A stretch of DNA of 64,000 nucleotides, taken from assembly GCF_024298765.1 (NCBI RefSeq), contig NZ_CP101210.1; one strand, 5' to 3'. Of the stretch, positions 23,571 through 41,190 are shown piece after piece. Position numbers and translations under genes: made by a program. The notes under the pieces are model-generated. The model was not told the origin of the DNA. It did not search any database and worked only from the letters and a program-made list of their open reading frames with translations. The DNA is from Escherichia coli (GTDB lineage Bacteria; Pseudomonadota; Gammaproteobacteria; Enterobacterales; Enterobacteriaceae). Every line of letters starts with the position of its first letter. The stretch's first letter is position 1.

Positions 23571-24866
23571 TTAATTTTTCATTGCTTCGTTATGGGGCAT
23601 GGTTGGGGCAAACTCGCTTAACTGTGTATTTAACAAAGCTACCTGTGCATTATTGTTTTCAGACATCCATTTTCCGTATACCTGAAATACCATTTGCGCA
23701 TCTGCATGGCCCATCTGGTTTGCTATAAATGCCGGGTTAGCACCAGCTGTCAGCGACCAGCAGGCATAAGTATGTCTCGACTGATATGATTTTCGATGGC
23801 GGAGTCCGGCACGTTTTATCGCTGCGTCCCACATCTGCCTTATTGAGTCAACGGTAAAATGGTCACCATAATTTTTTACTCTCGCTGACACTTCAGGTTG
23901 AAAAACAAAGGTGCATTTTTGTTTTTCTGTTCTGCCATACTCTCTGAGGTGAACATCAATGATATGCTCTTTGCTCAGTCTCGTTAATGTCATCTGACTC
24001 CGGAGAGCGTCGATTGCTGGCTTAATAAGATGAATGACCCGATTGGTTCCCGCCTGTGTTTTTGGTACCGTGAAACGGTCTTTTGCTAAATTTCTCCTGA
24101 TCATCATTGTTCCATTTTTCAGATCTATGTCCTCCCATCCAAGTGCACACAGCTCACCAGGGCGAACGCCAGTATAAACAGAAACACACCATAAATTTTT
24201 TGCTTGCTGATTTCTGCACGCATCGATAAGACGGATAAATTCCTCCCGCGAAAGAGGATCCGGAATGGTTCTTGATTCCTTTAATGGCGAGATCCCCTTA
24301 AACGGATTATCTGGCAGGTAACCGTTATCAACACCAAACTGGAACACGGCGTTAAGATTTGTCATGTAATTATTTACAGTTACAGCCGATCTCCCTGGTT
24401 GTGTAACAATATAGTTACTTTTGGGGATCTGGTATCCAGTCAGTAGCTCTTTACGAACCTCCAGTAATTTTTCTTTATTAATCGATGAGGCAAGATTTTT
24501 TTCACCGATTATGCTCAGGATATTTTTGATGACGGCACGGTATGTGTTGAGTGATGTTTTGGCGACTTCAGTTTCTTTCAGTGCCAGAAATTTTTCAGCC
24601 AGTTCTTTTATGGTTAAATCTTGTCGGGCCTCACCAAATTTTTCCAGATTGCGTGAGGAGGGAAACTGTTTTGCATAGTCGAAAACACCAGTTTTTATTG
24701 CGTAACAAACAGAGGAGCGTAGTTCACCTGCAACGCGCCTGTTTTTTGCTGTGTCAGGAACCCCCAGATTTTCCCTGACTCTTACGCCTTTATAAACAAA
24801 CCAGATACGTAATTTCCCTCCATGGTTTTCCACGCCTGTCGGATATTTCATTTCAACTTCTCTCAT
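23571..24866 (-). CDS. intQ: Phage tyrosine integrase (431 aa; possible alternative start at 24851)
   Basis: C-terminal catalytic region with RHTYACW...GH and tyrosine-recombinase R/H/Y spacing; gene ends at the host junction. Confidence 0.9.
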   Translation of the reverse strand: MREVEMKYPTGVENHGGKLRIWFVYKGVRVRENLGVPDTAKNRRVAGELRSSVCYAIKTGVFDYAKQFPSSRNLEKFGEARQDLTIKELAEKFLALKETEVAKTSLNTYRAVIKNILSIIGEKNLASSINKEKLLEVRKELLTGYQIPKSNYIVTQPGRSAVTVNNYMTNLNAVFQFGVDNGYLPDNPFKGISPLKESRTIPDPLSREEFIRLIDACRNQQAKNLWCVSVYTGVRPGELCALGWEDIDLKNGTMMIRRNLAKDRFTVPKTQAGTNRVIHLIKPAIDALRSQMTLTRLSKEHIIDVHLREYGRTEKQKCTFVFQPEVSARVKNYGDHFTVDSIRQMWDAAIKRAGLRHRKSYQSRHTYACWSLTAGANPAFIANQMGHADAQMVFQVYGKWMSENNNAQVALLNTQLSEFAPTMPHNEAMKN

Positions 24867-28320: not shown

Positions 28321-28378
28321 AAAAACGGCGGCAGAGCAGTCACGGAGTAAAACTGATACCGCCAAACGTCACCAGAAA
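28321..28378 (-). ncRNA. dicF: DicF small RNA
   Basis: Reverse complement of 28327-28378 reads TTTCTGGTGACGTTTGGCGGTATCAGTTTTACTCCGTGACTGCTCTGCCGCC, the recalled DicF sequence, ending in a GGCGG/CCGCC hairpin and U-tract. Confidence 0.85.
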
Positions 28379-32662: not shown

Positions 32663-33688
32663 ATGCACATTTTATCTGTTTCAAAAAAGGAAGTTGGAAG
32701 AGCTGGGGATAGATTAGTTTCTCAGTTTGGTACAGGTGAAAAATATAAAGAGGAAGATGTACAAATTCTTCATGAGTGGAGGATGTTGCATTTATATCCT
32801 TTAAGTAAAATACAATTTTATATGGAAAGAGAGGCTATTTCCTTAAACAAAAATGCGTTACTATCCTCTAGAATTAAGAGGATGCCTTCCATTGTTACTA
32901 AGCTTTCTAGATTTCCTGATATGAAGTTAAATAAGATGCAGGATCTTGGTGGGTGCCGGGCTATTTTAAATAATCTGGATCAAGTGTATGATTTAGTTAA
33001 TAAAATAAAATCATCTAAATTCTCACATGAACTAGTTAGAATGGATGATTACATGATAGACGTGAAAGATTCTGGTTATAGAAGCTTTCATATGGTCTAT
33101 TCATTCCAAAATAAAAAATTTCCATCTTTAAATGGGTTGCGCATTGAAATGCAAATAAGAACAGCTATTCAACATAGCTGGGCTACAGCAGTTGAAATGG
33201 TTGGTTTGTTTCGAAAGGAATCATTGAAATCTGGTTTTGGTGATGCAAGATGGCTTAGGTTTTTTGAATTGGTATCAGAGCTTTTTTATAAACTTGAGTA
33301 TGAAAAAGAACCATCTGGGAGTTATATAAAAATATCAGAAGAATTAAGTTATTTATCCGTCGAGTTGAATGTTTTCGATATATTAGCTGCTTACAATGCC
33401 GTAGTTAGCCATATTGAGGGTAGCAAAAAATATGATAAAGGACTTTGCATAATTGTTGTTGATACCATAAAGCGGAATATAAATATAAAGAGCTTCGAAA
33501 ATCACAATCATGCGAAGGCGGCAGAAGCTTATGTCGAGTCTGAAAAATACTGCGCGGAAAATAAAGGCTGTGAAGTGGCTATGGTTTCTGTTAGTTCAAT
33601 TAGTGAATTAAAAAATGCATATCCTGCTTACTTTTTAGATACGAAAACTTTTTTAAATTATCTCAGTAGGTATGTTTTTATAAAATAA
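32663..33688 (+). CDS. RelA/SpoT-homologue synthetase-domain protein (341 aa); candidate fused toxSAS toxin-antitoxin
   Basis: All four synthetase motifs present: RIKRMPSIVTK (RxKxxxSxxxK), DLGGCR (DxxGxR), GYRSFH, EMQIRTAIQHSWA (ExQIRT...W). About 130-aa C-terminal extension, no adjacent partner ORF, and much lower GC than the flanks. Confidence 0.75.
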   Translation: MHILSVSKKEVGRAGDRLVSQFGTGEKYKEEDVQILHEWRMLHLYPLSKIQFYMEREAISLNKNALLSSRIKRMPSIVTKLSRFPDMKLNKMQDLGGCRAILNNLDQVYDLVNKIKSSKFSHELVRMDDYMIDVKDSGYRSFHMVYSFQNKKFPSLNGLRIEMQIRTAIQHSWATAVEMVGLFRKESLKSGFGDARWLRFFELVSELFYKLEYEKEPSGSYIKISEELSYLSVELNVFDILAAYNAVVSHIEGSKKYDKGLCIIVVDTIKRNINIKSFENHNHAKAAEAYVESEKYCAENKGCEVAMVSVSSISELKNAYPAYFLDTKTFLNYLSRYVFIK

Positions 33689-34211: not shown

Positions 34212-34422
34212 TTTCATATTGGCGAGGTAAAGGTAGTTAAGTAGAATGGCTGCGGGTGCTTGAGGCTATCTGCCTCGGGCATGAACACCAAAGGCAGATA
34301 GAGAAAAGCCCCAGTTAACATTACGCGTCCTGCAAGACGCTTAACATTAATCTGAGGCCAATTTCATGCTAGACACATGTAGGTTAGCCTCTTACGTGCC
34401 GGAAGGCAAGGAGAAGCAGGCT

Positions 34423-34578
34423 ATGAAGCAGCAAAAGGCGATGTTAATCGCCCTGATCGTCATCTGTTTAACCGTCATAGTGACGGCACTGGTAACGAGG
34501 AAAGACCTCTGCGAGGTACGAATCCGAACCGGCCAGACGGAGGTCGCTGTCTTCACAGCTTACGAACCTGAGGAGTAA
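34423..34578 (+). CDS. hokD: Hok-family type I toxin (51 aa) with overlapping mok-like frame starting at 34366
   Basis: MKQQKAMLIALIVICLTVIVTALVTRKDLCEVRIRTGQTEVAVFTAYEPEE matches recalled HokD; AAGGAGAAG RBS; upstream in-frame extension resembles mok. Confidence 0.85.
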   Translation: MKQQKAMLIALIVICLTVIVTALVTRKDLCEVRIRTGQTEVAVFTAYEPEE

Positions 34579-36455: not shown

Positions 36456-37208
36456 ATGAACCTTGAAGCCTTACCAAAATATTACTCCCCAAAATCTCCA
36501 AAATTGAGCGATGACGCTCCAGCGACAGGCACCGGTTGTTTAACAATTACGGATGTAATGGCAGCGCAGGGGATGGTGCAGTCGAAAGCACCACTTGGGT
36601 TGGCCTTATTTCTGGCAAAAGTTGGTGTTCAGGACCCTCAGTTTGCGATTGAAGGCCTGCTAAATTACGCGATGGCACTGGATAACCCGACATTGAACAA
36701 ATTGAGTGAAGAAATCCGGTTACAGATTATTCCTTACCTCGTGAATTTTGCCTTTGCTGATTACTCCAGGTCTGCGGCAAGTAAGGCTCGCTGTGAGCAT
36801 TGTTCAGGTACGGGATTTTATAATGTATTGCGCGAAGTGGTGAAACACTACAGACGCGGGGAATCTGTAATCAAGGAAGAATGGGTGAAGGAACTATGTC
36901 AGCATTGCCATGGTAAGGGCGAAGTCAGCACAGCGTGCAGAGGGTGTAAGGGTAAAGGGATTGTTCTGGATGAAAAAAGAACCCGGTTTCATGGCGTACC
37001 GGTATATAAGATTTGTGGGCGTTGTAATGGAAACCGATTTAGTCGTTTACCGACCACGCTGGCACGACGTCATGTCCAGAAGCTGGTACCAGACCTGACC
37101 GATTATCAGTGGTATAAGGGGTATGCGGACGTCATTGATAAACTGGTAACAAAGTGCTGGCAGGAAGAAGCATACGCGGAAGCGCAATTGAGGAAGGTGA
37201 CGAGATAA
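36456..37208 (+). CDS. quuQ: Late-gene antiterminator Q-like protein (250 aa)
   Basis: Cys-rich zinc-binding region (CEHCSGTGF...[21 protein letters not shown]...CGRCNG); followed by a terminator as in a pR'-tR' unit. Confidence 0.85.
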
Positions 37209-37315
37209 ATGATTTTTGCTGAAGATGGCGACATGATGTTTGCATTTTTCAAAAAACATGGATAAGATTCTCTCAACGATGGGCTTTGTGTATCCGACGT
37301 TTAGAAAAAAGTAGA

Positions 37316-37340
37316 AAACCCGCTTATAAGCGGGTTTTTG
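37316..37340 (+). terminator. Rho-independent terminator downstream of Q (tR'-like)
   Basis: AAACCCGC-ttataa-GCGGGTTT hairpin followed by TTTTG. Confidence 0.6.
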
Positions 37341-37382
37341 TGCTTTAAATGGGGCAATAGAGATATTGAATCTCATCCCGGG

Positions 37383-37573
37383 ATAAACATTGGCAGTTGA
37401 AGGTCCACGCGAACCATTTATCCGGCAAAATTCCACGCGTAATCCTGTGGTAATTTCTTCTGCATCTCGAAGATTGAGAGCTGAAACGTGAAGCTGGGCA
37501 TCGATACGCCATCGGATGGGAATATAAGACCTTTGCTGCTTTTGTAGTCAAAGTTTTTGACAATTCCTGTCAT
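37383..37573 (-). pseudogene. cspF: Cold-shock protein CspF-like gene with internal frameshift
   Basis: From the ATG at 37573 the frame reads [22 protein letters not shown]; the rest of the CspF-like sequence ([10 protein letters not shown]...[20 protein letters not shown]) continues in another frame and has no in-frame stop at the expected position. Confidence 0.55.
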
Positions 37574-37883
37574 TTTAGGGGACAGAAAAACTCCTTAATA
37601 CTGATAACCTGGTGCACCATACACACGTTCCTGGAGAAAACTACTTTTTTGATAGGGTTGAAGGTGGCTGGATGTCTAAAATAAACATTGCTTCATATGT
37701 TCAACTATGAGTTAATGACTGCGTCGGTTTGAAGAACAGACGATATACGAAGTAGTTTACTAAAGCAGTTCTCATTTCAGGTGTTATTCACTTATTCCTT
37801 CTTTGAGTCTCTCCAATTAAGTACGAAGTCGTTTCTGTTATGCAAACCATTTATGCCGAAAGGCTCAAGTTAAGGAATGTAGA

Positions 37884-38099
37884 ATGTCAAATAAAATGAC
37901 TGGTTTAGTAAAATGGTTTAACGCTGATAAAGGTTTCGGCTTTATTTCTCCTGTTGATGGTAGTAAAGATGTGTTTGTGCATTTTTCTGCGATTCAGAAT
38001 GATAATTATCGAACCTTATTTGAAGGTCAAAAGGTTACCTTCTCTATAGAGAGTGGTGCTAAAGGTCCTGCAGCAGTAAATGTCATCATTACTGATTAA
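37884..38099 (+). CDS. cspB: Cold-shock protein CspB (71 aa)
   Basis: [71 protein letters not shown]; long AT-rich 5' leader typical of csp genes. Confidence 0.95.
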
Positions 38100-38382
38100 A
38101 ATTCATCGCTCGTCTGTATACGATAACGAAGAAGGCTGATGCCTGAGTAGAGATACGGACAGAGTAGTGAATATTGGATCTCTTTAATAAAAAGTAAGGA
38201 GGTCCAATACATGAAACAATGGCCAGCATATTTGGCAAAATCTTAATCAGGAAAAGTATGCTAACCATTGTGGTGAAGTGCAGGTTTGCTGCATGAATAG
38301 TTTTACAGCAGAAGCTAACTGCTGGCATGGCAAAACAAAGTGCGTAAGTGGATGACTCCCACAAAAAGCACCACAATCTCAA

Positions 38383-38404
38383 ACCCGCTCAGGCGGGTTT
38401 TTTA
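38383..38404 (+). terminator. Rho-independent terminator after cspB
   Basis: CCCGC-tcag-GCGGG hairpin followed by TTTTTTATT. Confidence 0.65.
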
Positions 38405-38462
38405 TTATCTGCTTTAAATATATTATTAAAATATAAAAAATACTTGTTACTAATAAAATCAA

Positions 38463-38633
38463 TCAGGCTACAGCTTTAAGATTTGTCTGGAATACTTTGT
38501 TGCAATGAGGGCAGATCAAAAGGGCACCTTTTTGTACTCTTGAAAAACTGTGTTCTGACTCTTGGGTGCAGTTTGGGCAGGAACATTTAACGAGATAATT
38601 ACGGCGTGATTTTGAGTCTTTACGTTCTGACAT
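38463..38633 (-). CDS. Small zinc-ribbon protein, YdfK/YnaE-like (56 aa; family assignment tentative)
   Basis: MSERKDSKSRRNYLVKCSCPNCTQESEHSFSRVQKGALLICPHCNKVF with CxxC...CxxC. Confidence 0.5.
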   Translation of the reverse strand: MSERKDSKSRRNYLVKCSCPNCTQESEHSFSRVQKGALLICPHCNKVFQTNLKAVA

Positions 38634-38852
38634 AGGCTTTTCCTGTATAAATGGCCGTATACAGTACACTAAATATGAAAACATTTCTCGTATTATTATT
38701 TTATATATGACTTTCTTTCAAAATAATTACTCACATTTTTAATGTGTATGTTTCTTTAGCGCCGTTGAGAACAACGTGTGCTGTCAAAACTACCCCGTAG
38801 ACTCCGATCTTTTCAAACATATTGCACCATCCGTGTACATCGGGGTGAGGAT

Positions 38853-39068
38853 ATGAAATCAATGGATAAGTTAACAACAGGTGTTGCCTATGGCACATCG
38901 GCGGGTAATGCTGGTTTCTGGGCATTGCAGTTACTCGATAAAGTAACTCCGTCACAGTGGGCTGCAATCGGTGTGCTGGGTAGCCTGGTTTTTGGCCTGC
39001 TGACGTATCTGACAAATCTTTATTTCAAGATTAAAGAAGACAGGCGTAAGGCTGCGAGAGGAGAGTAA
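38853..39068 (+). CDS. essQ: Class II pinholin (phage 21 S-like), dual start giving 71 and 68 aa
   Basis: [71 protein letters not shown]; two in-frame Met three codons apart, as in the S21 antiholin/holin pair. Confidence 0.85.
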
Positions 39069-39072
39069 TCCA

Positions 39073-39380
39073 ATGACTCAAGACTATGAACTGGTTGTGA
39101 AAGGAGTCCGTAATTTTGAGAATAAAGTTACGGTAACTGTAGCCTTACAGGACAAAGAACGCTTTGACGGTGAAATTTTTGACCTGGATGTCGCCATGGA
39201 CCGTGTTGAAGGAGCTGCGCTGGAGTTTTATGAGGCAGCAGCCAGAAGGAGCGTCCGGCAAGTCTTCCTGGAAGTAGCAGAAAAATTGTCAGAAAAAGTT
39301 GAGTCTTATCTGCAGCATCAGTACTCCTTTAAGATTGAAAATCCTGCCAATAAGCACGAGCGTCCTCATCATAAATATCT

Positions 39381-39384
<4 letters not shown>
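39073..39384 (+). CDS. ydfR: Prophage protein YdfR (103 aa)
   Basis: 103-aa ORF between holin and endolysin, overlapping the endolysin start. Confidence 0.78.
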
Positions 39385-40408
<1,024 letters not shown>

Positions 40409-40771
40409 GGTAATATTAAATCGGAACATTTACATCGCGGAATGTAAAATTTAAATAAAAAGGACTCTTCCATGAGCCAAAATTCCTGAAATCTTAAGGG
40501 TAAGATAAAAGGTCTTAATCAGAATGACACGTTTTATTAATAAATAAAGCTATTCTTTCATTGCTGTGTTTTTCTTTACAAAAGTAATCCTTGCTATGGG
40601 TGGTTAATCATGCGTTAATGGTGTTCTGGTTTGTTACAAATTTATCTGAAGCAGTCATTTTTATAATTTTATTATTTGTACCTCTTGAGATTTCCTTGTT
40701 GGTTTTTCTCTCTGATATTTTTTTTTCGGACCATTCTGCCCAAGGGCTAATTTCTTCAAAAGGTAATAATT

Positions 40772-40984
40772 ATGTCTAACAAAATGACTGGTTTAGTGAA
40801 ATGGTTTAACCCTGAAAAAGGTTTTGGTTTCATCACGCCGAAAGATGGCAGCAAAGATGTGTTTGTCCATTTCTCAGCAATTCAGAGCAACGATTTCAAA
40901 ACATTAACTGAGAATCAGGAAGTTGAATTTGGTATTGAGAACGGACCTAAAGGTCCTGCCGCTGTTCATGTAGTGGCGCTTTGA
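40772..40984 (+). CDS. cspI: Cold-shock protein CspI (70 aa)
   Basis: [70 protein letters not shown]. Confidence 0.95.
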
Positions 40985-41190
40985 GGTAGACAATATTACA
41001 AACCATATTCACTTTAGATGCCCGTGTTGTCATGGTTCCCAGTATAGAACATCATCTTTTGATGTTTCTGACATGAATCCTTTCGGGGCAAAATGTATCT
41101 TTTGTAAATCAATGATGATTACATTTGATAATATTTCACAATACTTAAATGCCAGCCGTCTGTCGTTGGATTTAAAAAAGTGAAAATGAA

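Follow-up and report, generated by a model that had tools for sequence, protein, structure and literature searches.

Loss of cspF by two deletions in the cold-shock cargo of a Qin-type prophage of Escherichia coli

The Cold-Shock Genes of Qin and Its Relatives

The cryptic prophage Qin of Escherichia coli K-12 carries, in the order ydfT (the Q gene), cspF, cspB, ynfU, a lysis cassette, and cspI, a set of cold-shock genes in which cspF (b1558) is accompanied by the small gene ynfS (b4750). The product of cspF and that of its relative cspH form a clade that is distant from other Csp proteins, is poor in aromatic residues, and is of unknown function (PMC6719143; PMC11648934). Intact cspF–ynfS of the K-12 type is also present in four isolated phages (2H10, PhiR42_1, HannyBb, and PhiR63_1). 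A further relative, Escherichia phage Tritos (OV696610; prophage 3 of AIEC LF82), is induced spontaneously, forms plaques on MG1655 hsdR-, and has been imaged as a siphovirus (PMC9928086). CspI, CspB, YnfN, and HokD have been reported as morons that are expressed in the Tritos lysogen, the expression data for CspB and CspI being for 37 °C only (PMC9928086). Thus, the cold-shock cargo of such phages has already been described.

A comparable pair exists on the chromosome. There, cspH and cspG are likewise divergent and likewise combine a gene of the CspF/H type with a cold-inducible gene of the CspA type; cspH is 81–83% identical in DNA sequence to cspF, has a match in 5,389 of the 5,426 complete E. 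coli genomes that served as our population set, and lies outside any prophage late operon. The prophage genes cspI–ynfQ–ynfR–ynfN–gnsB presumably parallel the genes that follow cspG (ymcF, ymcE, and gnsA). If so, the chromosomal csp cluster looks like the two cargo modules of the prophage without the lysis cassette between them.

We analyzed a stretch of 64,000 nucleotides of E. coli DNA (the window), which apparently contains a full-length lambdoid prophage of the Qin family. The gene order is Q, a divergent cspF/cspB pair, ynfU, the lysis cassette, and cspI (Table 1); the divergent pair, and the third paralogue following the spanin genes, had been recognized in an earlier, sequence-only reading of this DNA. 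The Q protein contains a DnaJ-type CXXCXGXG zinc motif, and genomes of identical sequence annotate its gene as ydfT ("antitermination protein"); ynfU lies on the strand opposite to that of the late operon, and the spanin gene rzpQ has an Rz1-like lipoprotein frame embedded within it. A 1.5-kb query around cspF was matched at 100% identity in at least 25 complete E. coli chromosomes. The annotation of strain 104 reads ydfT, cspF (pseudo), cspB, ynfU, essD, ydfR, rrrQ, rzpQ, and cspI, with cspF carrying the sole pseudogene flag in 45 kb, and the prophage of that strain runs from an integrase gene adjoining rspB through terminase, head, and tail genes to a tail fibre gene. The prophage occupies the ydfJ/rspB site, which it shares with the cryptic Qin of K-12.

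Relative to K-12 Qin, the window has suffered deletions of 1 base and of 258 bases, has CTG in place of TTG, and lacks ynfS. The window and phage Tritos are 99.7% identical over positions 37209–38460 (1,252 bases in a single aligned piece), they have Q, cspB, the lysis cassette, and cspI in the same order, and Tritos has both cspF lesions, although its database record leaves the cspF remnant unannotated. We conclude with high confidence that the window carries cargo of the Qin family in which cspB and cspI are intact and cspF has been inactivated by two deletions.

Table 1. Features of the Q–cspI region and of the cspF remnant (coordinates are those of the window)
Feature	Coordinates	Strand	Basis
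Q (ydfT/quuQ homologue), 250 aa	36456..37208	+	ORF; Pfam PF03589 Antiterm, E = 8e-55
Artefactual ORF, 129 codons, GTG start	37047..37436	-	ORF listing and three-frame translation
PR'-like late promoter and initial transcribed region (putative)	37240..37283	+	Alignment with lambda PR'
Mosaic patch	37262..37670	.	Segment identities versus K-12 Qin
Bidirectional intrinsic terminator hairpin	37315..37340	.	Terminator scan and folding
cspF pseudogene remnant	37383..37585	-	PGAP coordinates; alignment with K-12 Qin
258-base deletion junction	37383..37384	-	Alignments with K-12 Qin, four phages, and CP123276
Frameshifted ORF, 51 codons	37418..37573	-	Three-frame translation
1-base deletion in cspF	37508..37509	-	Alignment with K-12 Qin
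cspB 5' leader, 161 nt, cspA-type RNA thermosensor	37723..37883	+	Rfam RF01766
cspB, 71 aa, intact	37884..38099	+	Pfam CSD, E = 2e-31; annotated cspB
Intrinsic terminator ending the 307-nt cspB 3' region	38381..38406	+	-13.2 kcal/mol, z = -3.6
ynfU, zinc-ribbon small protein	38463..38633	-	Pfam PF23499 YnfU, E = 5e-31; PGAP
Lysis cassette: holin essD, ydfR, endolysin rrrQ, spanin rzpQ	38853..40408	+	ORFs and annotation
cspI, 70 aa, intact (40772-40984), with cspA-type leader	40625..40984	+	RF01766; Pfam CSD, E = 2e-31

Intact cspB and cspI and a Doubly Deleted cspF

Both cspB and cspI have leaders of the cspA type. The Rfam model of the cspA thermoregulator (RF01766, gathering score 78) matched positions 37723–38146 with 158.9 bits at cspB and positions 40625–41011 with 113.4 bits at cspI, and the leaders are AT-rich, with GC fractions of 0.37 (cspB) and 0.30 (cspI), as compared with 0.50 for the whole window. 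Because each of the two genes has a cspA-type leader of its own, the lysogen could express both without recourse to the late programme of the phage. The cspF gene does not belong to this class: the region upstream of it gave no match to RF01766 even at E <= 1, which accords with the published distance between the CspF/CspH clade and other Csp proteins. A generic σ70 scan of positions 37574–37720 listed no promoter for cspF. A permissive Rfam search of positions 37150–38900 otherwise returned only the rnk leader, the Trp leader, RsmY, isrK, and P9, all of them below threshold and driven by the terminators, and we dismissed these matches as chance.

The terminator at the end of the cspB 3' region is kept in K-12 and in phage 2H10. 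Within that 3' region we also observed, at positions 38195–38246 on the plus strand, a perfect Shine–Dalgarno sequence (TAAGGAGGT) followed after 7 nt by an 11-codon mini-ORF (MKQWPAYLAKS*). It is unannotated in every record inspected; its position is kept in K-12 Qin and 2H10, with non-synonymous differences (P/L and KS/IT).

That the remaining member of the trio descends from cspF is evident from its location at the same locus and from its 90.6% DNA identity to the K-12 gene. The TTG annotated as the start codon in K-12 is CTG here (positions 37585–37583), and an internal ATG is found at positions 37573–37571. The sequence-only reading had proposed that the gene is CspF-like for about 22 codons from its ATG and then continues in another frame as a result of a single-base deletion. 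This is what the alignment with K-12 Qin revealed: a T has been lost at 37509/37508, from the GGT that is codon 26 of K-12 CspF and codon 22 counted from the ATG, in the context GATGG[T]CGT, which is not a homopolymer. The resulting ORF encodes 22 CspF residues and then 29 out-of-frame residues before a stop at 37418, and the rest of the CspF sequence lies in another frame. The ORF does not provide what membership of the CspF/CspH clade of cold-shock-domain (CSD) proteins entails, namely, a continuous frame of about 70 codons encoding the whole five-stranded CSD. Indeed, the Pfam CSD model (PF00313) matched only an artificially frame-corrected product (E = 5e-17), and the actual 51-residue product had no Pfam match.

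The absence of a stop codon at the expected position had also been noticed correctly, but its cause is a separate, 258-base deletion that the sequence-only reading had missed. This deletion took the third base of codon 68, codons 69 and 70, the stop codon, the spacer, and the whole of ynfS and beyond. Inspection of the alignment with K-12 Qin revealed neither microhomology nor repeats at the junction, and we therefore assign no deletion mechanism. The gene had been taken to be a pseudogene, and in this the RefSeq annotation of identical sequence concurs, describing cspF as "frameshifted; incomplete; missing C-terminus." The lesions are real and disabling when compared with the intact homologues of K-12, the four phages, and contig CP123276 (discussed below).

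It is the 258-base deletion, and not the frameshift, that both removes the stop and creates the minus-strand ORF of 129 codons. This ORF begins in the frame of the CspF C-terminus, crosses the deletion junction, runs through the terminator hairpin, and continues in the antisense of Q to the first stop at 37047. The earlier suggestion that it is read-through rather than a gene thus holds. Might it instead be a new gene, in which the CspF C-terminus has been fused to an antisense-Q peptide? The GTG start and 129 open codons are what such a gene would offer. The product, however, matches no Pfam family and has no homologues, the intrinsic terminator within the ORF would end its transcript, the frame is made solely by the 258-base deletion and is therefore absent from the approximately 1,410 genomes with intact cspF, and PGAP did not call the ORF in any of the annotated genomes inspected. 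We regard a new gene as most improbable. The 51- and 129-codon ORFs are by-products of the cspF lesions and should stay uncalled; as a matter of annotation clean-up, cspF is a genuine pseudogene.

A Putative Late Promoter and Terminator Downstream of Q

The region downstream of Q resembles the PR'–qut–tR' region of phage lambda. The leader transcribed from PR' of lambda is about 194 nt long. Shared features are a Q of the lambda family (as judged by its match to PF03589), a −10-like TAAGAT followed by CTCAACGATGGG, and, next, an intrinsic terminator. In the window, TTGCAT (37240–37245) is separated by a 17-nt spacer from TAAGAT (37263–37268), and CTCAACGATGGG occupies positions 37272–37283. 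All four of the sequences compared (the window, K-12 Qin, SfV, and lambda) have this 12-mer, which contains AACGAT, without change; the window has a single copy of it. Unlike the 12-mer, the −35 region is not conserved; it matches the consensus at only three of six positions, and hence the PR'-like site was not listed in a generic consensus promoter scan.

The terminator lies about 40 nt past the PR'-like site. Its hairpin (37315–37338) is G+C-rich, has 10 pairs with T-runs on both strands, and forms a stable fold on either strand (approximately −27 kcal/mol, z = −4.3), and the homologous hairpin of phage SfV is annotated as a "putative rho-independent terminator." The sequence-only reading had correctly placed a terminator after Q. 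Since CTCAACGATGGG is identical to the initial transcribed region of lambda PR' and lies upstream of the hairpin, the hairpin is better read as tR' than as a terminator serving the Q gene. Thus, it is probably the late terminator controlled by Q, and probably also the place where transcription of cspF(–ynfS), which converges on it, comes to an end. The assignment of PR' and tR' draws on the homology with lambda and on the SfV annotation. A difference from lambda is the distance from putative start to terminator, which is approximately 40–70 nt here and so falls short of the longer lambda leader; the leader RNA predicted from the PR'-like site is approximately 65–70 nt long.

If these assignments are right, the csp genes would lie in a Q-dependent late transcript, in a slot for late-operon cargo. 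A similar slot is known from Stx phages, whose morons lie between Q and S, and here too the cargo is located between the late control element and the holin gene. In a lysogen, the hairpin would end the transcripts from PR', and cspB and cspI would depend on promoters of their own. Upon induction, polymerase modified by Q would pass the hairpin, the cspF remnant (in the antisense direction), and cspB with its terminator, and would proceed into the lysis genes and cspI. Meanwhile, the other strand of the hairpin would end any transcript still coming from the cspF promoter. Placement downstream of PR'–tR' would explain how cargo with cold-responsive leaders comes to lie inside a late operon, an architecture that is standard for lambdoid morons.

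Frequency, Origin, and Meaning of the Two-Lesion Allele

How common is the doubly deleted allele? In the population set of 5,426 genomes, a 60-mer spanning the frameshift matched 215 genomes (208 of them exactly), and a 60-mer spanning the 258-base junction matched 211. K-12-type intact cspF–ynfS was found in approximately 1,410 genomes, and genomes with neither type of cspF matched at cspH only. Thus, about 4% of complete E. coli genomes carry the two-lesion allele, as compared with about 26% that carry intact cspF. Wherever the divergent cspF allele occurred in this collection it had both lesions, and a 66-mer in which allele-specific SNPs were combined with a 3' end free of the deletion matched none of the 5,426 genomes at 99% identity or more. 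Its carriers come from poultry, humans, and water, and the elements that harbor it are full-length, decayed, or plaque-forming; in strain E24377A, for example, it resides in a decayed, IS66-rich Qin remnant at the same chromosomal site. The PGAP description of cspF as frameshifted, incomplete, and lacking its C-terminus recurs in strains 104, FCI56, and E24377A. The gene is therefore an already-annotated pseudogene (by PGAP, and in approximately 200 other genomes) in a described class of phage cargo, and is in that sense already known.

These counts also dispose of the idea that the frameshift is an error of sequencing or assembly and that cspF is really intact. Single-base indels are the commonest kind of assembly error, and the sequence-only reading had itself raised this concern, naming re-sequencing that restores one continuous CspF frame as the outcome that would overturn it. 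A 77-mer in which the T had been restored, however, matched 213 genomes, all with a 1-base gap and none exactly. With the T absent from all 213 allele-bearing genomes, a frame-restoring result upon re-sequencing is effectively excluded. Moreover, the frameshift 60-mer has exact matches in 208 complete genomes that were assembled independently, and also in phage Tritos; the site is not a homopolymer; and the 258-base lesion takes the stop codon regardless. The population data have already refuted sequencing error, to which we assign a negligible probability.

The allele itself is a divergent one. A patch that spans the PR' start, the terminator, cspF, and the region upstream of cspF is only about 89–91% identical to K-12 Qin, whereas its flanks are about 99% identical, a mosaic pattern that is typical of lambdoid phages. 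In the part of cspF that follows the frameshift, read in the old frame, the allele differs from the K-12 gene by 6.5 synonymous and 3.5 non-synonymous changes (dN/dS 0.17). This mostly synonymous divergence indicates that the allele evolved under selection while it was functional and was inactivated recently. In keeping with this, a protein search with the restored CspF sequence uncovered an intact protein (P0001, 98% identical) on contig CP123276. The gene on this contig has the same allele-specific SNPs but has kept both the T and the 258 bases that include ynfS, differs from the restored window allele by one base, and is the one intact copy of the divergent allele that we found, having come to light through the protein search. 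As judged from these comparisons, the window allele is a recent derivative of a CP123276-like gene. We also observed that the 258-base ynfS segment of CP123276 is identical to that of K-12, even though it lies between flanks that are about 10% divergent; CP123276 may thus itself have arisen by recombination and need not be the ancestor in a literal sense.

In our reading, a divergent and formerly functional cspF allele, of a lineage with CTG at the annotated TTG start, was hit by two deletions. The loss of one base in codon 26 leaves only 22 residues, counted from the ATG, of the cold-shock domain. The 258-base deletion eliminated the final two and one-third codons together with the stop codon and ynfS, and so brought the remnant against the bidirectional terminator.

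An alternative is that function was never lost and that recoding restores CspF, by way of a programmed −1 shift of the ribosome at GAT GGC GTA. The CspF frame is indeed open past this site, and the codons beyond it still have the look of selection. But the substitutions that create this appearance are common to the intact CP123276 allele and are therefore older than the lesion. In addition, the site (CCGATGGCGTA) lacks a slippery heptamer, the stop is gone so that a recoded protein would acquire approximately 110 extra residues from the terminator hairpin and antisense Q, and PGAP calls a pseudogene. We give recoding scarcely any credence, and return to the view that cspF has been inactivated.

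What, then, does the inactivation mean? It probably reflects neutral decay of dispensable cargo, and here phage Tritos is informative. Because Tritos forms plaques with the two-lesion allele, cspF–ynfS is dispensable for phage growth, and the loss of cspF has no visible cost to the phage. That CspF and YnfS can be dispensed with by a plaque-forming, Qin-like phage fits with the unknown function of the CspF/CspH clade. Selection for the loss, for example because it removed transcription running against the Q-dependent late operon toward the terminator that both share, or eliminated a product that burdened host or phage, strikes us as unlikely. It would account for two independent inactivating lesions being fixed together in every carrier and for the spread of the allele across hosts (poultry, humans, and water) and types of element, and it draws some latitude from the fact that the function of CspF is unknown (PMC6719143). 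A single ancestral haplotype, however, would link the two lesions in any case, and intact cspF–ynfS is approximately seven times commoner (1,410 versus 211 genomes) and persists in four isolated phages. Rather less probable still is a specific benefit to the Tritos lineage, whether an adaptive loss of cspF–ynfS that improved late or lysis gene expression or the acquisition of a function by the 51-residue peptide. Whichever force fixed it, the two-lesion allele is a dated natural knockout that can be compared with the genomes in which cspF is intact.

Finally, we note several features of the prophage outside the cargo region. Positions 23571–64000 contain integrase, excisionase, exonuclease, dicB, CI/Cro-like regulators, Q, and the lysis genes, as well as terminase, portal, a protease–capsid fusion, tail genes, J, Lom, and a tail fibre, so that the prophage looks complete, in contrast to the cryptic Qin of K-12. 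Rfam matches above the gathering score were obtained for the DicF small RNA (28326–28377, minus strand) and for the sok antitoxin RNA of the hokD locus (34254–34428, plus strand), which are the expected early-region RNAs of a Qin-type prophage. At the place upstream of hokD/sok that relBE occupies in K-12 Qin, the window has a 341-codon ORF (32663–33688, plus strand) with a RelA/SpoT domain (PF04607, E = 4e-18); the early region of Tritos differs in that it has an ImmA/IrrE gene, whereas the window has this RelA/SpoT-domain gene. The ORF matches the PADLOC candidate defence family PDC-S33 (E = 5e-119) and may be a prophage-borne anti-phage gene for a fused, toxic small-alarmone synthetase of the CapRel-like type.
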